Origin: Escherichia phage BEU50
Sequence record: OM632671.1
Strand: one strand, 5' to 3'
Length of the DNA stretch: 64,000 nt
Position 1 is the first letter of the stretch, and every line of letters begins with the position of its first letter. A program made the position numbers and the translations under genes. This document shows, one piece after another, positions 3,417 through 44,873 of this stretch. The notes under the pieces are model-generated. The model saw only the letters and a program-made list of their open reading frames with translations. It made no database searches and was not told the DNA's origin.

Positions 3417-3830
3417 ATGACTCGTATCAATTTAACACTTGTTTCTGAACTGACTGACCAACATCTTATGGCTGAGTATCGTGAATTACCACGCGTATTT
3501 GGTGCAGTCCGTAAACATGTTCAAAACGGTAAACGTGTAAAGGATTTTAAAATCTCTCCAACATTTATCTTAGGCACAGGTCACGTAACATTCTTTTACG
3601 ACAAACTCGAATTTTTACGTTTACGTCAAATCGAGCTAATCGCTGAATGTTTGAAACGTGGTTTCAAAATCAAGGACACGACAGTCCAGGATATTTCCGA
3701 CATCCCTGCCGAATTTCGTAATAATTATGTCCCGTCCGAAGCGTCCATTGCGATAAGTCAAGCACGCTTAGATGAAAAAATTGCTCAACGTCCGACTTGG
3801 TACAAATACTATGGTAAATCAATTTACTAA
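3417..3830 (+). CDS. denV: endonuclease V, pyrimidine-dimer DNA glycosylase
   Basis: [12 protein letters not shown]...[11 protein letters not shown] matches T4 DenV; ORF-track start 3405 is TTG. Confidence 0.95.
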
Positions 3831-3836
3831 GGAAAA

Positions 3837-4097
3837 ATGAAAATGTATCAAGAATTTATCATTGAAGCAGATGCCAAAGGTCCTAAATTTAAAGTTAAAG
3901 CTTTCATTGGTGATGCGGAAGACTTTGGCTCATTAAAACGTAATGGGTATTCTTTCTTAGGTGGCGATGGTAAAGAAATCAACACCTATGCAAAACGTAG
4001 TGAAATTGCTTATGTTGTAGCAAGTCCTAAAGTAGATGTTGACGATATTGGATATGATTTTAACAACTTCGGAATTATTTCTGGCGGTAAAGCTTAA
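3837..4097 (+). CDS. internal-protein-like protein with capsid targeting sequence
   Basis: N-terminus MKMYQEFIIE. Confidence 0.6.
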   Translation: MKMYQEFIIEADAKGPKFKVKAFIGDAEDFGSLKRNGYSFLGGDGKEINTYAKRSEIAYVVASPKVDVDDIGYDFNNFGIISGGKA

Positions 4098-4100
4098 ATT

Positions 4101-4130
4101 GTTTACGCTTAAGTATTAATATGGTATAAT
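4101..4130 (+). promoter_or_regulatory. early promoter
   Basis: GTTTAC 4101-4106, TATAAT 4125-4130. Confidence 0.5.
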
Positions 4131-4160
4131 TACTCTATCAAAACAAACAAGGAAACAAAA

Positions 4161-4475
4161 ATGAAAACGTATAAAGAATTTATTGCAGAATCCGCCAACC
4201 AACGCGTTGAAGGTGGTTATATTTGGATTGAACAAGTTGAGCCACCGAGCCGCACTTCTACAGGTAAATGGAAAATTACTGTTGACGGTCCTGGTGGTAA
4301 ACGTAGGACTCTTAAAGAAATTAATGGGTACTATGAAGAAGCTCTTTCGGATGCAGGAACTTACATGATGCAAATCATGATTAAAAACCCTGAAAACCGT
4401 TTTGCAGCTAAAGTCTTCCGTCGTATTGGTAATAAACTTTATGATGCATACTCTAAAAACTTCCCTAAAGAATAA
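4161..4475 (+). CDS. internal-protein-like protein with capsid targeting sequence
   Basis: N-terminus MKTYKEFIAE. Confidence 0.65.
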   Translation: MKTYKEFIAESANQRVEGGYIWIEQVEPPSRTSTGKWKITVDGPGGKRRTLKEINGYYEEALSDAGTYMMQIMIKNPENRFAAKVFRRIGNKLYDAYSKNFPKE

Positions 4476-4500
4476 CATAAATTAAAACAATAGGAACAAA

Positions 4501-37077: not shown

Positions 37078-39789
37078 ATGAAAGAATTTTACTTAACGGT
37101 TGAACAGATTGGTGATTCAATTTTTGAACGTTACATCGATTCTAATGGCCGTGAACGTACTCGTGAAGTAGAATATAAACCATCACTGTTTGCTCATTGT
37201 CCAGAAAGTCAGGCTACGAAATATTTCGATATCTACGGTAAACCGTGTACTCGTAAGTTGTTCGCTAATATGCGTGATGCCTCCCAATGGATTAAACGCA
37301 TGGAAGATATCGGACTTGAAGCACTTGGCATGGACGATTTCAAATTGGCGTATTTGTCTGACACTTATAACTATGAAATCAAATACGACCATACAAAAAT
37401 TCGTGTGGCTAACTTCGACATCGAAGTAACATCTCCGGATGGGTTCCCTGAGCCGTCACAAGCAAAACATCCTATTGATGCTATCACCCATTATGACTCA
37501 ATTGACGACAGGTTCTACGTATTTGATCTATTGAATTCTCCATATGGTAATGTGGAAGAATGGTCTATCGAAATTGCGGCTAAGCTTCAAGAACAAGGCG
37601 GTGATGAAGTTCCATCCGAAATTATCGACAAAATCGTTTATATGCCGTTCGATAACGAAAAAGAATTGTTGATGGAATATCTCAACTTCTGGCAACAGAA
37701 AACTCCTGTCATTTTGACTGGATGGAACGTTGAGTCATTTGATATTCCATATGTGTATAACCGAATCAAGAATATTTTTGGCGAATCTACTGCGAAACGT
37801 TTATCACCACATCGTAAAACTCGTGTTAAAGTTATCGAAAACATGTATGGTTCTCGTGAAATCATTACATTGTTCGGTATCTCTGTTCTTGATTACATTG
37901 ACCTTTACAAAAAATTCTCTTTTACCAATCAACCGTCGTATTCTCTGGATTACATTTCAGAATTTGAATTGAACGTTGGTAAACTGAAATATGACGGCCC
38001 TATTTCTAAGCTTCGTGAAAGCAATCACCAACGATATATTTCTTATAACATTATCGACGTGTATCGTGTATTGCAAATTGATGCTAAGCGTCAGTTCATC
38101 AACTTGAGCTTGGACATGGGTTATTATGCTAAGATACAGATTCAATCTGTGTTTAGCCCAATTAAAACATGGGATGCTATTATTTTTAATAGCCTTAAAG
38201 AGCAGAACAAGGTGATTCCACAAGGTCGTTCTCACCCAGTTCAACCTTACCCTGGTGCTTTTGTTAAGGAACCTATTCCAAATCGATACAAATATGTAAT
38301 GAGTTTCGACCTTACATCTCTGTATCCAAGTATTATTCGCCAAGTGAATATTAGCCCGGAAACAATAGCAGGAACGTTTAAAGTAGCTCCACTGCATGAT
38401 TATATTAACGCAATCGCTGAACGTCCTTCAGATGTGTACAGTTGCTCTCCTAACGGCATGATGTATTATAAAGACCGTGATGGTGTAGTTCCAACTGAAA
38501 TCACTAAGGTCTTTAATCAACGTAAAGAACATAAAGGTTACATGCTTGCAGCTCAACGTAATGGTGAAATAATTAAAGAGGCATTGCATAATCCTAATCT
38601 TTCTGTTGACGAACCATTAGATGTTGATTATCGTTTCGACTTCAGTGATGAGATTAAAGAAAAGATTAAAAAGTTGTCTGCTAAATCTCTTAATGAAATG
38701 TTGTTTAGAGCTCAACGTACTGAAGTTGCAGGTATGACTGCACAGATTAACCGTAAATTGCTCATCAACTCACTTTATGGTGCACTTGGCAACGTTTGGT
38801 TCCGTTATTATGATTTGCGTAATGCTACTGCAATCACAACATTTGGTCAAATGGCTTTACAGTGGATTGAACGTAAAGTTAATGAATATCTGAATGAAGT
38901 TTGTGGTACAGAAGGTGAAGCTTTCGTTCTATATGGTGATACAGACTCCATTTACGTATCTGCAGATAAAATTATTGATAAGGTTGGTGAATCTAAATTC
39001 CGTGATACCAACCATTGGGTAGACTTCTTAGATAAGTTCGCTCGTGAACGTATGGAACCTGCTATTGATAGAGGTTTCCGTGAAATGTGCGAATACATGA
39101 ACAATAAACAACACTTAATGTTCATGGACCGAGAAGCTATCGCTGGTCCTCCGCTCGGTTCTAAAGGTATTGGTGGATTTTGGACTGGTAAGAAACGTTA
39201 TGCATTAAACGTGTGGGATATGGAAGGAACCAGATACGCTGAACCTAAGCTTAAAATCATGGGTCTCGAAACACAGAAATCTTCGACTCCTAAAGCAGTA
39301 CAGAAAGCTCTTAAAGAATGTATTCGTCGTATGCTTCAAGAAGGTGAAGAATCATTACAAGAATATTTTAAAGAGTTTGAAAAAGAATTCCGTCAATTGA
39401 ATTATATTAGCATCGCGTCGGTATCTTCTGCGAATAACATTGCTAAATATGATGTAGGTGGATATCCAGGACCTAAATGCCCGTTCCATATTCGTGGAAT
39501 TCTGACGTATAACCGGGCTATCAAAGGTAATACCGATGCACCGCAAGTTGTAGAAGGTGAAAAAGTATATGTTCTGCCTTTACGTGAAGGAAACCCATTC
39601 GGTGATAAATGTATCGCATGGCCTTCTGGTACTGAAATCACAGATTTAATTAAAGACGATGTACTTCATTGGATGGACTACACTGTTCTCCTTGAGAAGA
39701 CATTTATTAAACCACTTGAAGGATTCACATCAGCAGCGAAACTCGATTACGAGAAGAAAGCATCTCTGTTCGATATGTTCGATTTTTGA
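37078..39789 (+). CDS. 43: DNA polymerase gp43 (family B)
   Basis: 903 aa; exonuclease and polymerase motifs (DIE, YGDTDS); sequence matches my recollection of RB69 gp43. Confidence 0.97.
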   Translation: MKEFYLTVEQIGDSIFERYIDSNGRERTREVEYKPSLFAHCPESQATKYFDIYGKPCTRKLFANMRDASQWIKRMEDIGLEALGMDDFKLAYLSDTYNYEIKYDHTKIRVANFDIEVTSPDGFPEPSQAKHPIDAITHYDSIDDRFYVFDLLNSPYGNVEEWSIEIAAKLQEQGGDEVPSEIIDKIVYMPFDNEKELLMEYLNFWQQKTPVILTGWNVESFDIPYVYNRIKNIFGESTAKRLSPHRKTRVKVIENMYGSREIITLFGISVLDYIDLYKKFSFTNQPSYSLDYISEFELNVGKLKYDGPISKLRESNHQRYISYNIIDVYRVLQIDAKRQFINLSLDMGYYAKIQIQSVFSPIKTWDAIIFNSLKEQNKVIPQGRSHPVQPYPGAFVKEPIPNRYKYVMSFDLTSLYPSIIRQVNISPETIAGTFKVAPLHDYINAIAERPSDVYSCSPNGMMYYKDRDGVVPTEITKVFNQRKEHKGYMLAAQRNGEIIKEALHNPNLSVDEPLDVDYRFDFSDEIKEKIKKLSAKSLNEMLFRAQRTEVAGMTAQINRKLLINSLYGALGNVWFRYYDLRNATAITTFGQMALQWIERKVNEYLNEVCGTEGEAFVLYGDTDSIYVSADKIIDKVGESKFRDTNHWVDFLDKFARERMEPAIDRGFREMCEYMNNKQHLMFMDREAIAGPPLGSKGIGGFWTGKKRYALNVWDMEGTRYAEPKLKIMGLETQKSSTPKAVQKALKECIRRMLQEGEESLQEYFKEFEKEFRQLNYISIASVSSANNIAKYDVGGYPGPKCPFHIRGILTYNRAIKGNTDAPQVVEGEKVYVLPLREGNPFGDKCIAWPSGTEITDLIKDDVLHWMDYTVLLEKTFIKPLEGFTSAAKLDYEKKASLFDMFDF

Positions 39790-39829
39790 TATAATGTCAT
39801 GGACGGTAAACTAATTAAATGAGAGAAAT

Positions 39830-40465
39830 ATGAAAACTACTCCTATTACTATCGCTATTGACGCAATCATAAAACAAGCTTCTTCTTTGGCCGCTATGGC
39901 CAAAGTAATTAGTCAAAACCCTGCTCGTTATAATGCTATTCTAGAAACTCTTCGACGCCCGGGACTTAGTAATTATGAAAGCCGAGTAATTATTACAGGT
40001 GTTGGTAAGAATGCTAATATTGCAACTAAAGCTTCTGAGACATTTGCTTCACTCGGTATCCCGAGTATGTACTTGAACACTGGGCATTATTCTCACGGTG
40101 ATGCAGGATTCATTGCGCCTAATGATGTGTTGATTCATATTAGTCGTTCTGGTAAAACTGAAGAAATGATAGGCGTGGCTAAGCATCTTAAAATGATTCG
40201 ACCGAACGTCAAACAGATTCTGTTGCATTGTAACCCAGACATTCCACAAGAAAATGAAGCCCTTTTTGATTACTCTTTCTGTACAGGCATCGCAGTAGAG
40301 GTTGATGAGAATTCTCTGGCTCCGACTATGTCCACTACATTGTTGTTAGCGCTTATCGATACGTTTGCTATCAACCTTTCGTCTGAACGTGGATTTACCT
40401 CTAATGACTTCCTTAAGTTCCACCCTGGTGGTGCACTAGGTGCCATGTTACGAGGCGAACAATGA
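39830..40465 (+). CDS. SIS-domain sugar-phosphate isomerase, KdsD/GutQ-like arabinose-5-phosphate isomerase without CBS domains
   Basis: ITGVGKNANIATKASETFASLGIPS, HGDAGFIAPNDVLIHISRSGKTEE, LAPTMSTT...FHPGGALG parallel the KdsD SIS-domain motifs. Confidence 0.75.
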   Translation: MKTTPITIAIDAIIKQASSLAAMAKVISQNPARYNAILETLRRPGLSNYESRVIITGVGKNANIATKASETFASLGIPSMYLNTGHYSHGDAGFIAPNDVLIHISRSGKTEEMIGVAKHLKMIRPNVKQILLHCNPDIPQENEALFDYSFCTGIAVEVDENSLAPTMSTTLLLALIDTFAINLSSERGFTSNDFLKFHPGGALGAMLRGEQ

Positions 40466-40605
40466 AAGCAATAACAATAGGACTTTTACTATTGATGCTT
40501 GTCATGACTATCTACTGGAGCTTAACGGCTCCAGTAATGATTCCAACACTTGTAATTGGATGGATTATGATTGGACTACAAGCAAAGTATGAATGCTTTA
40601 ACTAG
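40462..40605 (+). CDS. small membrane protein (47 aa)
   Basis: ATGA overlap with the isomerase stop; two hydrophobic segments; below ORF-track cutoff. Confidence 0.3.
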   Translation: MKAITIGLLLLMLVMTIYWSLTAPVMIPTLVIGWIMIGLQAKYECFN

Positions 40606-40646
40606 AATAGTGTACAATACTCCTACTTACCAATGAGGACCACAAC

Positions 40647-42332
40647 ATGAAAAAAGCTGTTATTCTTGGTGCTGGACTGGCAACTCGTTTATATCCAATT
40701 ACTCACCATATTCCTAAGGTGCTTGTTAACTATAAACAAGACACTATTCTGAGCAATTTGTATACAATTTATTCTGACCTAGGCGCAGATGAAATTATTG
40801 TAGTAGTTCATTCAAAATTTGCTGAAACTGTTCGAGCTTATTGTGAGCAAGAAGGGTTCAATGTGACTATTCGTACAGTTGATGAAGCGTATGGTTCTGC
40901 TTATGCTCTTGCTAAATTACACAAAGATTTAGACGGCCATAATGTAATTGTTAACTGGTGTGATATTATTCCGGATTTTGGTTCATGGTCTTGGAATGTT
41001 AACGCAATCTATGTTAAGGGTGACGAATGTCGATATAATTTCGACGGTGAAAATATCACTAACGTAGGTTCAACAGGTGGTAATGTTGTAGGAATTTATC
41101 AGTTCAAAGACTGGGAATTCTATATGGGTTCTACTGATGAGGAAATTCATGAATACTGCAAAGGACGTGATTTCGTAGAATTCCTTTACGGCAGCGCATT
41201 CAATAAATCAGAGCTTATGAATCTAATTGATTTAGGTGATATGCCTAAACTTGAAAAAGCTCATGAAGTTCGTGAACTTAATCGTAGTTTTAATGCAGTT
41301 GAAATTGGTGAAGAAACTGTAACTAAATTCGCATTAACCGAACAGGGCCGAGCTCTTCAGAAAGATGAGATTTCGTGGTATTTGAAAGTGAAATCAGATT
41401 CAGTCCCTCAGTTAGTTTCTGTTAATGAAAATAACTTTGAAATGGAACGCATTAAAGGTAAGCCGGCATTTGAATATATTAAATCCAAATCAAGTCTTGC
41501 TCGTCCACAAATTGTTGATGCAATTTTAGATGCACTGAAATTCAGCACAGACACTTATTTTGTAAGTCCTGAAACTGTTCGTCGTGATTTCACTAAAGAA
41601 TTCTATACGAAAGTTATTGATCGTTGTGAAAGCATTCAACCATTGATTGATTCATTTGGTAAAATCACACATGTGAACTACACTAAGATTGGACGTCTGA
41701 AGCCAATGCTGAAACAAGCTTTAGAACACCTTATTCGTTATCATAACCGTTCTCAGGGACAGTACTCTGTTATTCATGGTGACCCGAACTTCAGTAATAC
41801 TATGATTACTGATAACGGCGAAGTCAAATTTATCGACCCTCGTGGATATTTTGGCGAAACCAAGATTTACGGGCCAAAATTGTACGATGAAGCTAAAGTG
41901 CTTTACGCTGTTTCAGGTTATGATGAATTCAATGCTAATCCGACCTGGGGACAGTTTACTATTGATGAAACAACTTGTAATGTGACTATTAACATCAATC
42001 CATTAGTTTACAAATATGGAAAGATGAGTTCGTTTAACGAGTATCATCATTTGGCAGTGGCAATTATCTGGATTGCATTAGGTGGTTATTTCAAGAATAA
42101 TCCACTTAAAGCGGTAGCCGCATATTATAAAGGTATGGAACTTCTGACTAAGCAATTACGTAACATGGGCCGTGTACTTCAGGACGGCTCTATTAGTTAT
42201 GACGTAGCAGAACCTGTAACGGCTACTCTGATTACAAAAAATCCTGGTAAATGGGTACTAACTGATAAAGAAACTGGTGTTTCCTATCGTCCAATCGGTG
42301 GCGATATCACTCATCAATGGGAACGAATTTGA
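40647..42332 (+). CDS. bifunctional sugar-1-phosphate nucleotidyltransferase / sugar kinase
   Basis: N-terminal ILGAGLATRLYPIT NTP-transferase motif; C-terminal VIHGDPNFSNTMITDNGEVKFIDPRGYFG kinase catalytic loop. Confidence 0.7.
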   Translation: MKKAVILGAGLATRLYPITHHIPKVLVNYKQDTILSNLYTIYSDLGADEIIVVVHSKFAETVRAYCEQEGFNVTIRTVDEAYGSAYALAKLHKDLDGHNVIVNWCDIIPDFGSWSWNVNAIYVKGDECRYNFDGENITNVGSTGGNVVGIYQFKDWEFYMGSTDEEIHEYCKGRDFVEFLYGSAFNKSELMNLIDLGDMPKLEKAHEVRELNRSFNAVEIGEETVTKFALTEQGRALQKDEISWYLKVKSDSVPQLVSVNENNFEMERIKGKPAFEYIKSKSSLARPQIVDAILDALKFSTDTYFVSPETVRRDFTKEFYTKVIDRCESIQPLIDSFGKITHVNYTKIGRLKPMLKQALEHLIRYHNRSQGQYSVIHGDPNFSNTMITDNGEVKFIDPRGYFGETKIYGPKLYDEAKVLYAVSGYDEFNANPTWGQFTIDETTCNVTININPLVYKYGKMSSFNEYHHLAVAIIWIALGGYFKNNPLKAVAAYYKGMELLTKQLRNMGRVLQDGSISYDVAEPVTATLITKNPGKWVLTDKETGVSYRPIGGDITHQWERI

Positions 42333-43078
42333 TACATTATCTCTACAAAACTACTAATCTTATAAACGGTAAAGTTTATTTAGGAATGCACTCGGCTGAA
42401 GAAGCCGAGCCTTTAGATTTATATAAAGGTTCTGGTAAATTATATAAAAAGGCTGAAAGGAAATACGGTAAGGAAAATTTTCTTAAAGAAATCATTTCCT
42501 ACCATAGCTCAAGAGAAGAATTAAAAATAGCTGAAAAGGCTCTAATAACATTAGACATAGTTAAAGACCCGAATTATTACAATCTTAAAACTGGTGGCGA
42601 AGGTGGTTCTGACGGGTTATCCCAAAGGTCCAAGGATAAAATTTCTAAGGCAAATAAAGGACGTTTAGTTGGTGATAAAAACCCAAGATGGGGTAAAACT
42701 TTGTCAGCTGAATCTATAGCTAGGGGTAAAGAAAAGCACAGGAGGTATGGTAAACCTGCATTACATGGTCTAAAGATTAATGTAGATGGCAAATATTATG
42801 AATCCTGTCGGGAAGCGGCTAAAGATTTGGGTATATCTTCTGCCACGATTCAAAAGAGAGTAAAATCGCCTAAATATCTTAATTATCGATATCAGGACGA
42901 AAGCAAAAATGCTCACAAGTCTCAAAAATTTGTTAAAATAAACGAAAATTACTATGAATCTCTTAGGATAGCTGAAAAGAAAACGGGTATTCCTAGAAAG
43001 CGTATAGCTGATAATATTAAAAATTCTATTGAAGGATATTGCTATGAAACCATTACATCTTTGCGTGGACGTCGATGA
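42317..43078 (+). CDS. GIY-YIG homing endonuclease (Seg-like)
   Basis: IHYLYKTTNLINGKVYLGMH GIY-YIG motif; C-terminal NUMOD/HTH-like region; overlaps both neighbours. Confidence 0.75.
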   Translation: MGTNLIHYLYKTTNLINGKVYLGMHSAEEAEPLDLYKGSGKLYKKAERKYGKENFLKEIISYHSSREELKIAEKALITLDIVKDPNYYNLKTGGEGGSDGLSQRSKDKISKANKGRLVGDKNPRWGKTLSAESIARGKEKHRRYGKPALHGLKINVDGKYYESCREAAKDLGISSATIQKRVKSPKYLNYRYQDESKNAHKSQKFVKINENYYESLRIAEKKTGIPRKRIADNIKNSIEGYCYETITSLRGRR

Positions 43079-43418
43079 TTGTATAACAGAGTGGAATAAC
43101 AATCGTGATTACGTGAACTTCAAACCAGACGTCGAAATGGTGTCTGCCATTAATGCCCTGTATGAGGCAGGGCATACCATAACGCTTTACACTGCTCGCG
43201 GTATGAAGTCAGTAGGTCCTGGTCGTATAGCAATTGACATTCTCCCAAGTCTGATTCAGAACTTGGCAAACATTGGCTTGAAGTACCATAATTTGCTAAC
43301 ACATAAACCAGTATATGATTGGATTATCGACGACAAAGCTATGCGTCCTGACGAATTCAAAGCTCTTATGAATAAAGGCGAATTCGAAACATTTAAATCA
43401 TATAAACCGAATCTATAA
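43044..43418 (+). CDS. HAD-superfamily phosphatase
   Basis: DVDDCIT motif I, downstream T, K and IIDD motifs; ORF-track start 43029 is TTG. Confidence 0.6.
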   Translation: MKPLHLCVDVDDCITEWNNNRDYVNFKPDVEMVSAINALYEAGHTITLYTARGMKSVGPGRIAIDILPSLIQNLANIGLKYHNLLTHKPVYDWIIDDKAMRPDEFKALMNKGEFETFKSYKPNL

Positions 43419-43464
43419 TAATTTAAGTAAGACCTGCAAAAACCATCGCATCAATTAACGTGAG

Positions 43465-44637
43465 ATGCAAAAAAAAATGAATACTTTTAAAATCGGAACG
43501 AATTTTGATTTAGCTCTTCTTGATAAAATCGTAGAGCTCAATAAAACTTATCCTAATAGCTTGATAAACGAAGTATACGGCTCTACAAGAGAAATGGCTT
43601 TTGTAGCAGCCAGACCTGATTTTAGGCTTCCTGACGTTGACAAAAAGATGTTAGAAGATTACGTTAAACGTTGTAACGAATTAGGTATTTGCTTTAACTA
43701 TACACTCAACACGATAAATCCTGGTTCAAAAAGAGAACTAGTTGAGTGGAAGAAGAAAGCTATTCAGGATTATGTTCAGTATCTTTGGTCAATAGGCGTA
43801 TGGCGTATTACTATCGCTAACCCTGTTGTTATGGAAATTGTTCGTGAAGTCAATAAAGACATTGAGATTGAAGTTTCAACAATTCTACATGTCGATGCTG
43901 TAACTCAAATCAAATACTTGCATGACCAATATAATATCAAAAAGGTCTGCTGTGGAATTCATAAGAACCGTTCAGTTTCTTTCCTGAAGCGTGCAGCAGA
44001 GTTTTGCAATAAGAACAATATAATATTTGAAGTTCTTGTAAATGAGTTCTGTTCTAATGCTGGTAAAGGGTATACAACACATTGTAGCTATCGTGACTCT
44101 TGCTATATTTTCCATAGTACTGATGTTACAGCTGATGATGCTAAATCCTTAAACGGATATCCAATGCAGCACTGTATTAAAGCTCGTGATACAGACCCAT
44201 TTAACTGGTTGAGAACTCGTTTTGTTCGTCCTCAAGATTTGAAACTTTATAATGATATTGGTATCACTCAATTCAAAGTTTCAGGACGTACAGGTAGCAC
44301 AGACTACATTTTGAAAGTTCTTGAAGCATACGCTTCTGAAAAGTTTGAAGGTAATTTGTTAGAACTGTGGAAGCCTTTAGAGACTATTTTCACTCTTGAA
44401 AACGAAACTGAGTTTTCACATACGGTAAATATTGAAACCTCTTTGTTAGATGGCTTTTTAGAAAAAAGGTGGTTCAGACATCCAGATTTCGATTGTGCTA
44501 ATGAAATCTGCGGGACGACGTGTACATATTGTGAAAGATATTATAAACGTCAGTTATCTAAAAATGGGTTATCAGAAAATTCTATATCTATTATTGATAT
44601 AACTAACTCTGACGACGCTTTGAGGTACCCGGAATGA
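43465..44637 (+). CDS. hypothetical Cys-rich protein, possible Fe-S enzyme (390 aa)
   Basis: C-terminal CANEICGTTCTYC (CxxxCxxC within it) plus CSYRDSCYIF; family not assignable by eye. Confidence 0.5.
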   Translation: MQKKMNTFKIGTNFDLALLDKIVELNKTYPNSLINEVYGSTREMAFVAARPDFRLPDVDKKMLEDYVKRCNELGICFNYTLNTINPGSKRELVEWKKKAIQDYVQYLWSIGVWRITIANPVVMEIVREVNKDIEIEVSTILHVDAVTQIKYLHDQYNIKKVCCGIHKNRSVSFLKRAAEFCNKNNIIFEVLVNEFCSNAGKGYTTHCSYRDSCYIFHSTDVTADDAKSLNGYPMQHCIKARDTDPFNWLRTRFVRPQDLKLYNDIGITQFKVSGRTGSTDYILKVLEAYASEKFEGNLLELWKPLETIFTLENETEFSHTVNIETSLLDGFLEKRWFRHPDFDCANEICGTTCTYCERYYKRQLSKNGLSENSISIIDITNSDDALRYPE

Positions 44638-44873
44638 TTTCTAGAAAAACTTTTAATTATAAACTTAATGAAGAGATTTTGACTATGAAACTGAACACCA
44701 ACGAACAAATTCTTAAAAAGGCCCTTATGGGCCTGTTTGAAACCAAAGCGGCTAAAGTGATTAAAGAACCTATTCAATTGGAATACTATGCTGATGCATT
44801 TCTTCATAGTGTTCTTGGAAGTATCGATGCTGAAGCTTTACGTTATATCAACATTGCCAAGAAATTCAAATAA
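44634..44873 (+). CDS. hypothetical protein (79 aa)
   Basis: ATGA overlap. Confidence 0.45.
   Translation: MISRKTFNYKLNEEILTMKLNTNEQILKKALMGLFETKAAKVIKEPIQLEYYADAFLHSVLGSIDAEALRYINIAKKFK

Follow-up and report, generated by a model that had tools for sequence, protein, structure and literature searches.

The endonuclease gene and its neighbours

We describe here a gene for a GIY-YIG homing endonuclease in Escherichia phage BEU50 and its relationship to the DNA-modification genes that flank it. The analyzed stretch (the window) comprises 64,000 nt of record OM632671.1, and coordinates are window positions unless a compared locus is named. Compared loci carry L-numbers (L001, RB69; L002, NRG-P0074; L005, Ac42; L055, Serratia phage LC53; L041 and L042, metagenomic; L044, L046 and L047, IMG/VR contigs). 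The window belongs to an RB69-like Mosigvirus, and its DNA polymerase gene (37078-39789) and the genes after it show 98-99% nucleotide identity to RB69 and other Mosigvirus phages. The endonuclease open reading frame (ORF) lies between the genes for a bifunctional nucleotidyltransferase/kinase and a HAD-type phosphatase (Table 1). The original prediction had placed a Seg-like gene at 42317-43078, overlapping its upstream neighbour by 16 nt and its downstream neighbour by 35 nt, and both the coordinates and the overlaps were confirmed in the ORF listing and the sequence: the upstream gene ends with a TGA at 42330-42332, the phosphatase ATG is at 43044 and the endonuclease stop codon is at 43076-43078. 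The GenBank records of NRG-P0074, JM17 and a20 annotate the ORF with the same coordinates, including the phosphatase start that corresponds to 43044.

Table 1. Positions of the endonuclease gene, its parts and the genes around it in the window.
Feature	Coordinates	Strand	Basis
Free-standing GIY-YIG (Seg-like) homing endonuclease ORF, 253 aa, intact, longest version from ATG	42317..43078	+	ORF listing, homology
Candidate alternative TTG start codon	42329..42331	+	Starts of homologs align here; TTGA overlap (4 nt) with upstream stop
GIY-YIG catalytic domain, aa 1-97	42317..42607	+	Y8/Y10 (HYLYK), Y21-x-G23 (VYLG), E73, N89
NUMOD3-type linker / minor-groove binding segment, aa 102-135	42620..42721	+	Pfam NUMOD3 20.4 bits, equal to the cut-off; LSxxxKxKISKANKGR..G.KNP invariant in subfamily
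I-TevI-type helix-turn-helix DNA-binding module, aa 152-192	42770..42892	+	PF20987 33.6 bits (cut-off 27), NUMOD1 24.6 (22.8)
Second conserved C-terminal two-helix module, aa 205-237	42929..43027	+	Model helices 212-223 and 227-235, pLDDT ~78; conserved across subfamily
Shine-Dalgarno-like GAAGGA for phosphatase, inside endonuclease coding sequence	43031..43036	+	Seven bases before ATG, sequence reading
Endonuclease-linked tract, 742 bp replacing 42 bp of the free allele	42329..43070	+	4 carriers vs 9 non-carriers
Diverged patch, TCTTTGCGTGGAC vs TCTTTGTTTTGAT in endonuclease-free phages, just 5' of HAD motif I codons	43057..43070	+	Fixed differences at 43064, 43065, 43067 and 43070
SIS-domain arabinose-5-phosphate isomerase	39830-40465		Downstream of polymerase gene
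Bifunctional sugar-1-phosphate nucleotidyltransferase/kinase, RB69 gp52:53 homolog, 561 aa	40647..42332	+	Pfam NTP_transferase 8.5e-10, weak kinase matches, PHROG 4098, PMC6024577, PMC13326640
HAD-type phosphatase, RB69 gp51 homolog, 124 aa	43044..43418	+	TIGR01689 1.8e-13, PHROG 1238, alignment to RB69 and Ac42; role by analogy, PMC13326640

The cytosine-arabinosylation cluster of RB69 consists of gp55, gp52:53, gp51 and gp48; in the proposed pathway, gp52:53 carries out both the phosphorylation and the nucleotidylation of arabinose phosphate, and the bisphosphate intermediate is dephosphorylated by gp51 (PMC6024577, PMC13326640). The endonuclease ORF goes unmentioned in these two papers. In the window, the phosphatase gene is followed by genes for a U32-family protein, a thymidylate-synthase-like enzyme and a putative glycosyltransferase.

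Domain architecture of the encoded protein

BLASTP was used to compare the protein with the T4 proteins (T4 RefSeq record), and the top matches were SegB (45% identity over 124 aa, E 7e-28), SegE (5e-23) and SegA (2e-22). The protein also matched PHROG 314 (3e-43) and, above the cut-off, TIGR01453 (63 bits vs 56). Because of these matches, we assigned it to the GIY-YIG family, which agrees with the Seg-like identity given in the original prediction. The AlphaFold (AF2) model, built from 59 homologs, had a predicted local distance difference test (pLDDT) score of 91-98 over residues 1-97, its best fold matches were to I-TevI, and this region displayed the GIY-YIG core, a three-stranded antiparallel sheet flanked by helices in the order beta-beta-alpha-beta-alpha. 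Residues Y10, Y21, G23, E73 and N89 were invariant in the 59-homolog alignment, and the first three of these aligned with T4 SegA-E. E73 and N89, which do not vary in the subfamily either, probably correspond to I-TevI E75 and N90, as judged by fold position and motif order rather than by residue-level superposition.

The C-terminal region resembled the DNA-binding part of I-TevI. The I-TevI DNA-binding domain (1i3j) was found by a PDB profile search (E 2e-4) and was the top Foldseek match, and BLASTP aligned the region with T4 I-TevI residues 185-242 (34% over 59 aa, E 5e-5). The only cysteines, C164 and C242, are not invariant in the subfamily, and the protein contains no counterpart of the I-TevI zinc-finger cysteine cluster; the protein is therefore I-TevI-like in layout and not a full structural equivalent of the I-TevI DNA-binding region. 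A BLASTP comparison of aa 150-195 with aa 203-252 did not detect an internal helix-turn-helix repeat. The two-helix module that follows the helix-turn-helix is possibly another DNA-binding unit. In summary of its layout, the protein is composed of a Seg-type GIY-YIG domain, a NUMOD3 linker and an I-TevI-like helix-turn-helix DNA-binding region.

An intron-encoded endonuclease was considered and ruled out. An Rfam scan of 41800-43600 placed no family near its threshold, group I introns included, and the only hit with E <= 1 was an unrelated long non-coding RNA model at 16 bits vs a cut-off of 70. The flanking genes are separate and complete, and they are contiguous in endonuclease-free phages; together with the lack of an intron match, this identifies the gene as free-standing.

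Distribution and insertion boundaries in Mosigvirus

A 4.9-kb query across the locus was used to compare related genomes, and 154 phage records matched it at >=95% identity. Three of them (NRG-P0074, a20 and JM17) matched 100% of the query, while the rest, including RB69, matched 85% of it in two pieces. Likewise, tblastn found a 100% identical protein in exactly NRG-P0074, JM17 and a20, and the next best record showed 51% identity. The comparison at this junction that the original prediction had proposed thus returned not a conserved gene but a sporadic one, with endonuclease-free alleles in the large majority of Mosigvirus records (about 150 of about 154, RB69 among them). At the endonuclease-free junction of RB69 and other Mosigvirus phages, the stop and start codons of the flanking genes are joined as TAATG.

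Upon alignment of the four carriers (the window, NRG-P0074, JM17 and a20) with nine endonuclease-free Mosigvirus phages, the fixed differences between the two groups all fell in 42329-43070 and none fell outside. It follows that the cassette replaces 42 bp of the free allele (C TAATG CAC CAT GTA GAA AAC ATG CTT AAT CTT TGT TTT GAT). The replaced part includes the first phosphatase codons (MHHVENMLNLCFDVDDC is changed to MKPLHLCVDVDDC), and carriers have donor-type sequence over the initial ~27 nt of that gene, with MKPLHLCVD in place of MHHVENMLNLCFD. The free-allele N-terminus of the phosphatase, MH[HR]VENML..CFD, is common to Mosigvirus and a second genus (L044-L046), and the carrier-type N-terminus, MKPL..C(V/I/L)D, is shared with carrier alleles of other lineages and with one endonuclease-free relative (L050). 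In addition, TTTGCGTGGAC is common to Ac42 and the window, where RB69 has TTTGTTTTGAT. Because the free N-terminus is shared with a second genus and the carrier type with other lineages, the Mosigvirus carrier allele is the derived state, and a short donor piece of the phosphatase gene came in with it.

We also observed variation in the free alleles themselves. Phosphatase codons 2-3 vary non-synonymously at the free Mosigvirus junctions (ATG CAC CAT/CGT/TGT, CAT CGT and CCC CGT; e.g. L001 4035-4045, L006, L007 and L011), and five segregating sites lie within the 42 bp replaced by the cassette among otherwise near-identical free Mosigvirus phages. In endonuclease-free phages, translation of the phosphatase may really begin at an internal ATG located six codons further on (M-L-N-L-C-F-D).

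The four Mosigvirus copies differ from each other by 0-5 nt. They contain seven single-nucleotide polymorphisms in 742 bp, all of them at third codon positions, and the proteins are identical; the probability of seven of seven third-position changes by chance is about (1/3)^7 = 5e-4. The endonuclease gene is under purifying selection. Among the four carriers, the density of segregating sites is 9/kb within the gene, rises to 15-18/kb over the nearest ~1.5 kb and reaches 37-49/kb at greater distance; the genomes that carry the cassette diverge at up to 3% of positions at 2-4 kb from the gene. In the distal flanks, the carriers are no closer to one another than to non-carriers; even in the proximal flanks, some non-carriers (G53 on the left side, RB69 on the right side) match the window as closely as the remaining carriers do. 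This pattern is consistent with a cassette that originated once and recently in Mosigvirus and then moved into different backgrounds; ordinary recombination could produce it as well. Mosaic flanks were not adopted as proof of repeated homing, as ordinary recombination after one insertion explains them equally. From the near-identical copies, the sharp boundaries and the donor-type phosphatase start, the acquisition within Mosigvirus looks recent and horizontal, and on these grounds the recent insertion put forward in the original prediction is supported.

The subfamily and its site in other phages

To place the gene among its relatives, 5.8 billion proteins were searched, which revealed only eight clusters related over the full length (53-100% identity) and then a sharp drop to relatives of the N-terminal domain only. 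An IMG/VR scan with the endonuclease protein alone returned only distant N-domain relatives (<=41%); the useful contexts were obtained through the protein-cluster search and through contig look-ups, in which seven of the eight clusters and Ac42 were inspected. In every one of these contexts, the gene is located immediately 5' of an orthologous phosphatase gene. The subfamily comprises nine lineages with 50-100% identity, including that of Acinetobacter phage Ac42. Where extra small ORFs are present (Ac42, L060), they are found only between the nucleotidyltransferase/kinase and the endonuclease, never between the endonuclease and the phosphatase. The constant partner of the subfamily is therefore the 5' end of the phosphatase gene.

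Closely related carrier and non-carrier alleles were found in two further lineages, which together with Mosigvirus gives three independent allele pairs. In the L062(+)/L050(-) pair, the flanks are 99.6% and 98.3% identical and the endonuclease gene forms a clean 718-nt insertion directly before the phosphatase ATG; in the L040(+)/L052(-) pair, the flanks are 92-94% identical. The suggestion of the original prediction that the cluster is a target of homing endonucleases is borne out by the presence of one subfamily at one junction in nine lineages, by the three allele pairs and by a second GIY-YIG gene 3' of the phosphatase (see below).

Upon inspection of individual members, some irregularities were noted. 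L063 (257-952) and L064 (175-870) carry a subfamily member 69% identical (tblastn) to the window ORF, with the same ATGGGAACGAATTTGAT left junction; this endonuclease lacks 21 residues of the invariant LSxxxKxKISKANKGR (NUMOD3) segment and may be decaying. In L052, the endonuclease-free relative of L040, the phosphatase frame (3473-3520) has no ATG and only a TTG, and it reads ..LYIDNT where the other phosphatases have DIDNT, the codon for the nucleophile Asp being missing beside a T-run. The L052 frame may be that of a pseudogene, may result from a sequencing error or may bear a scar at the site of the endonuclease.

Pairwise identities of endonucleases and phosphatases define the same three clades but are not proportional (rho 0.50); for example, the L060 and Ac42 endonucleases are 82% identical and their phosphatases 61%. 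The element thus seems, from these comparisons, to be both long tied to its site and mobile among lineages. The findings can be set against a reading in which the gene is an ancient resident of the junction, vertically inherited and lost in nearly all Mosigvirus phages, so that the carriers are relics without ongoing homing. We consider this very unlikely, although the gene occupies the same site in lineages from two Straboviridae subfamilies, the two proteins fall into the same clades and the overlap architecture described below is kept among homologs 57-74% identical. The free junction with the longer N-terminus MH[HR]VENML, being shared with a second genus, is not a recent deletion product. 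Moreover, the Mosigvirus copies are nearly identical although the carrier genomes diverge at 2-4 kb and form no clade there, two other lineages have both alleles on flanks 92-99.6% identical, and the L060 and Ac42 endonucleases are far more alike than their phosphatases.

These results support, with a high degree of confidence on our part, the reading of the ORF as a functional or very recently functional free-standing homing endonuclease gene, of a subfamily specific for the 5' edge of the HAD phosphatase gene of the arabinosylation cluster. The gene is real, intact and selectively maintained, it was recently and horizontally acquired in the RB69 group, and its subfamily is dedicated to one junction.

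Gene overlaps, start codons and expression signals

The ATG at 42317 falls among the conserved terminal codons (..H Q W E R I stop) of the upstream gene, and phages without the endonuclease have it too. Outside the clade of the window, the start codons of the homologs all align with the in-frame TTG at 42329 (Ac42p079 TTG, L040 GTG, L041 ATG, L042 ATG, and P0006/P0007). The 16-nt 5' overlap consequently hinges on the choice of start codon, and both ATG 42317 and TTG 42329 are candidate starts.

At the 3' end, the last 35 nt of the endonuclease ORF hold the start codon and the first 11 codons of the phosphatase in another frame. A 3' overlap was also found in five other lineages (homologs 57-74% identical): L040 and L041 have 35 nt, L039 and L062 have 32 nt, and L063/L064 have 26 nt. 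In these overlap-type lineages, the phosphatase ATG sits within the codons for G-Y/C-C-Y-E of the endonuclease, which ends at an out-of-frame TGA/TAA located either at the HAD motif codons or immediately ahead of them; GAT GAT/AAT forms this stop in the window, L040 and L041. In every overlap-type homolog, (G/A)AAGGAT(A/G)TTG(C/T)T stands immediately before the phosphatase ATG, with GAAGGA as the Shine-Dalgarno-like sequence in L039, L041, L062 and L063/L064 and AAAGGA in L040. The Ac42-type members (Ac42, L042 and L060) have no overlap with the phosphatase. As the 3' overlap is kept in five other lineages and absent in the Ac42 type, it is an old, stable architecture of one branch rather than a sign of recency. 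Similar gene overlaps are present in T4 (segF/56, segC/5.1 and mobD/nrdC.11).

The original prediction had taken the tight overlaps as evidence of a recent insertion. This argument is supported at neither end, since a 3' overlap of 26-35 nt persists in the diverged homologs of L039, L040, L041, L062 and L063, and the 5' ATG pre-exists in endonuclease-free phages. The mobility proposed in the original prediction is nevertheless supported by the evidence given above.

The embedded phosphatase start also bears on whether the gene is kept because it benefits the phage, through marker exclusion, amplification or exchange of the cluster as with T4/T6 SegB, regulation by DNA binding, or translational coupling to the phosphatase. 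Since the ribosome-binding site and start of the phosphatase lie in the 3' end of the endonuclease gene, a simple deletion would harm phosphatase expression. In addition, SegB, the closest T4 homolog by sequence, drives the amplification of anti-defence loci in T4/T6 (PMC13096335), which is a precedent for a speculative extra role of the endonuclease, and the gene resides inside a DNA-hypermodification (anti-restriction) cluster (PMC13326640). Purifying selection would suit such a role but is equally expected of an actively homing element. However, 98% of Mosigvirus phages lack the gene, so it is not needed for the arabinosylation pathway; no tandem amplification of the region was seen in the window or the three carrier records, where the alignment is single-copy and colinear; and roles of this kind would add to homing, not replace it. 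We regard this reading as unlikely.

The base composition of the endonuclease gene (GC 34%, GC at third codon positions 25%) is like that of its neighbours and is therefore uninformative on a foreign origin. A perfect 7-bp inverted repeat, CTCGGCT GAAGA AGCCGAG, was observed at 42391-42409 (endonuclease codons 26-31); it was flagged in a terminator scan without a convincing T-tract, and the surrounding 136 nt fold with an unexceptional z of -1.4. The minus-strand ORFs at 42577-42792 and 42770-43102 were taken as shadows of the plus-strand gene.

Points against the homing reading

Several observations weigh against a functional homing endonuclease. A dedicated promoter or strong ribosome-binding site for the gene was looked for and not found: a scan for sigma-70-like promoters gave no more sites than in shuffled sequence, the T4 late-promoter TATAAATA is absent from 39700-44800, and the fold of the endonuclease start region is unexceptional (z -1.4). 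T4-like phages recombine heavily, and the mosaic flanks and the diversity trough could follow one insertion and ordinary recombination. The coarse congruence of endonuclease and phosphatase also means that a long vertical association contributes alongside transfer.

The remaining points concern catalysis. The Pfam GIY-YIG models scored below threshold (SegE_GIY-YIG, 18.6 bits vs a cut-off of 25), and I-TevI R27 has no obvious counterpart in the sequence, with no invariant Arg after the YIG motif. Where an Arg is expected, the subfamily contains H25-S26 ... Y36-x-G38-S39-G40-K41, and the same HS...Y.GSG pattern is present in T4 SegA-E, which were published as active enzymes (PMC2330249). Neither PDB sequence and profile searches nor hhalign of the subfamily against full-length I-TevI aligned the N-terminal domain, the match being confined to the C-terminus. 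As the sequence methods aligned only the DNA-binding part of I-TevI, the fold comparison was used in place of a residue-level mapping of the catalytic Arg.

From these points, the ORF might be viewed as an inactive remnant, intact by chance, with a dead nuclease that is kept because deletion would remove the phosphatase start. The NUMOD3 deletion in L063/L064 indicates that decay at this site does occur. This view is nonetheless extremely improbable in our judgment, because the full-length ORF retains every subfamily-invariant residue, all seven polymorphisms are synonymous, the catalytic-domain pattern is that of the active T4 enzymes and the distribution points to a very recent spread.

Proposed mechanism and candidate target

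According to the favoured reading of an active homing endonuclease, during co-infection with an endonuclease-free relative the enzyme would bind and cut the free allele at or near the junction of the nucleotidyltransferase/kinase stop and the phosphatase start, with a likely target that takes in the sequence immediately before the HAD motif I codons. The break would be repaired by the phage recombination machinery with the carrier genome as template, which would bring in the 742-bp cassette and a short 5' stretch of the donor phosphatase gene. The carrier allele is presumably protected, because the target stretch is replaced. The sharp cassette boundaries, the donor-type flank and the clustered differences beside the insertion lend indirect support to such cutting and homing. 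In the clade of the window, the cassette is integrated in the operon, with its start coupled to the upstream stop (through TTGA or, with the ATG as start codon, through the 16-nt overlap).

In each of the three allele pairs, the differences beside the insertion are concentrated within 10-27 nt downstream of the phosphatase ATG, and the patch that diverged in Mosigvirus (Table 1) also differs within the L062/L050 and L040/L052 pairs. Between Mosigvirus carriers and non-carriers, 4 of 7 nt differ, after which no fixed difference occurs for 3 kb; between L062 and L050, 6 of the first 27 nt differ, compared with 1.7% across the other 1.8 kb. The codon preceding that of the nucleophile Asp is TTT in none of the eight alleles with an intact endonuclease and in eight of the ten endonuclease-free alleles. 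The hypergeometric probability of this association is ~0.001 (a hand calculation without phylogenetic correction), and the association is absent in the Acinetobacter-type clade. The sole carrier allele with TTT is L063/L064, in which the phosphatase keeps the free-type TTTGTTTTGAT and the endonuclease has the 21-residue NUMOD3 deletion. These data hint at recognition by the enzyme of the sequence immediately before the DxD codons, with carrier alleles being immune at that place; the patch could equally be a hitch-hiking donor tract.

Comparison with known endonucleases

To relate the gene to characterized systems, we compared it with the Seg proteins and I-TevI of T4. The N-terminal catalytic domain shares the pattern HS...Y.GSG...YGxxNF...E...YN.K.GG with SegB, SegE and SegA, and the T4 Seg genes, like the window gene, are free-standing between genes and missing from close relatives. 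A NUMOD3 linker is common to the window protein and SegB, for which a 27-bp recognition site with a conserved tRNA motif and tolerance of glycosylated cytosines were described (PMC2330249). There are also clear differences. The window gene is located at the arabinosylation-cluster phosphatase and presumably has another target, whereas the T4 Seg genes are at tRNA genes, hoc.1-uvsW and other sites; its protein has a longer C-terminus, with an I-TevI-type helix-turn-helix and a two-helix module, and the similarity to Seg proteins ends after about residue 120; and its 3' end overlaps the downstream gene and supplies its start.

I-TevI, encoded in the T4 td intron, has the same layout of catalytic domain, linker and helix-turn-helix. 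The targeting of DNA that encodes a conserved active-site motif, as suggested here, would parallel that of I-TevI, which, reportedly in work of Edgell et al. from 2004 cited in PMC2330249, targets the DNA coding for the thymidylate synthase active site. In contrast to I-TevI, the window gene is not intron-encoded, its product has no zinc-finger cysteine cluster, and the two catalytic domains are unalignable by sequence methods.

The proposed mode of spread is the same as for T4 SegF and SegG, known for intronless homing with marker exclusion, in which the free allele is cut in a neighbouring conserved gene, repair is templated by the carrier and flanking sequence is co-converted (PMC2993671, PMC2330249), and segF also overlaps its upstream neighbour, gene 56. 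The sequence similarity to these proteins is weak (E 4.5e-6 for SegF and 0.08 for SegG), and, unlike in these systems, the fixed co-converted tract covers only ~27 nt of the downstream gene.

The closest counterparts are annotated ORFs of other phages. Ac42p079 ('putative GIY-YIG family homing endonuclease') is of the same subfamily, with 51% full-length identity and the same place 5' of an orthologous phosphatase, and the ORFs of NRG-P0074, JM17 and a20 encode a 100% identical protein in the same place. Unlike in the window, the Ac42 endonuclease stop is followed directly by the phosphatase ATG, and three small ORFs come after the nucleotidyltransferase/kinase and before the endonuclease. No mention of Ac42p079 or of the three other ORFs was found in the literature searched.

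Petrov et al. reported RB69 without homing endonuclease genes and found no convincing evidence that such elements move across phage genera (PMC2993671). The RB69 group, formerly recorded without them, is now seen to be invaded at a frequency of ~2% inside a protective DNA-modification cluster, and the same subfamily at the same site in distant phages bears on whether such elements cross genera. The carrier and non-carrier phages (NRG-P0074, JM17 and a20 vs RB69) constitute a natural system for the study of homing, co-conversion tract length and target immunity in arabinosylated DNA. The ORF also accounts for the difference in this stretch among otherwise near-identical therapeutic-candidate phages, where the embedded phosphatase start calls for caution. 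The general picture of how homing endonucleases work is unchanged, as this is a known phage endonuclease type, ordinary though real and mobile.

Other endonuclease genes and minor observations at the cluster

A second, unrelated GIY-YIG gene was observed immediately 3' of the same phosphatase and before the U32 gene in Serratia phage LC53 (L055 2623-3261), and it is also present in Winklervirus and in three IMG/VR contigs (L044, L046 and L047, at ~3863-4490). This second endonuclease shares 31% identity with the window ORF and, among the T4 proteins, is most closely related to SegC; for this gene, L044(+) and L045(-) provide a pair of carrier and non-carrier alleles, whose flanks show 89% and 97% identity. 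Two distinct insertion sites for endonuclease genes thus border the 375-bp phosphatase gene. A wider scenario, which we hold to be possible but doubtful, is that one endonuclease lineage has tracked the phosphatase 5' edge across genera and subfamilies, from Mosigvirus to the Acinetobacter Twarogvirinae, recognizing DxD-coding DNA, driving exchange or SegB-like amplification of hypermodification cassettes and being hard to lose in one clade because of the phosphatase start. If so, then with the second endonuclease at its other end, the phosphatase gene would be a natural recombination hotspot that shapes the spread of anti-restriction DNA modifications.

Further endonuclease genes were noted in the vicinity. 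At the far end of the cluster, beside uvsX, Ac42 has an HNH-family homing endonuclease gene (Ac42p074, L005 7291-7824). The gene 43-uvsX interval gathers endonuclease genes in several T4-like lineages, and T4 segA lies in the equivalent variable region (PMC6024577). In L041 (1-2260), a GIY-YIG ORF (400-1098) is located between two DNA_pol_B fragments, so that the polymerase gene is split; the polymerase gene is also split in L042 (1-2283), where a NUMOD3-containing ORF is present on the opposite strand beside a 390-aa polymerase fragment.

Upstream of the endonuclease gene, AATGCTTTA at 40592-40625 conforms to the T4 MotA-box pattern, and a TACAAT lies ~13 nt beyond it, shortly before the ATG of the nucleotidyltransferase/kinase gene (40647). 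By its sequence, this site may act as a middle promoter, and it would then also drive transcription of the endonuclease gene.

Several minor points concern the annotation of the neighbouring genes. In the RB69 record (AY303349, L001 2349-4035), the nucleotidyltransferase/kinase is split into ORF053c and ORF052c owing to a known single-base sequencing error (PMC6024577). The same gene is labelled 'dCMP deaminase' in NRG-P0074 (L002 2348-5119), and the HAD phosphatase is labelled 'phosphoheptose isomerase' in several public records. At 43465-43476 (alignment columns 43469-43472), an A-run at the start of the longest U32-family ORF differs in length among Mosigvirus phages; most GenBank records begin the U32 gene at an ATG 12 nt downstream (43477), while the G53 annotation takes the longer version. 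The 390-aa U32-family ORF probably includes four non-coding codons at its start.

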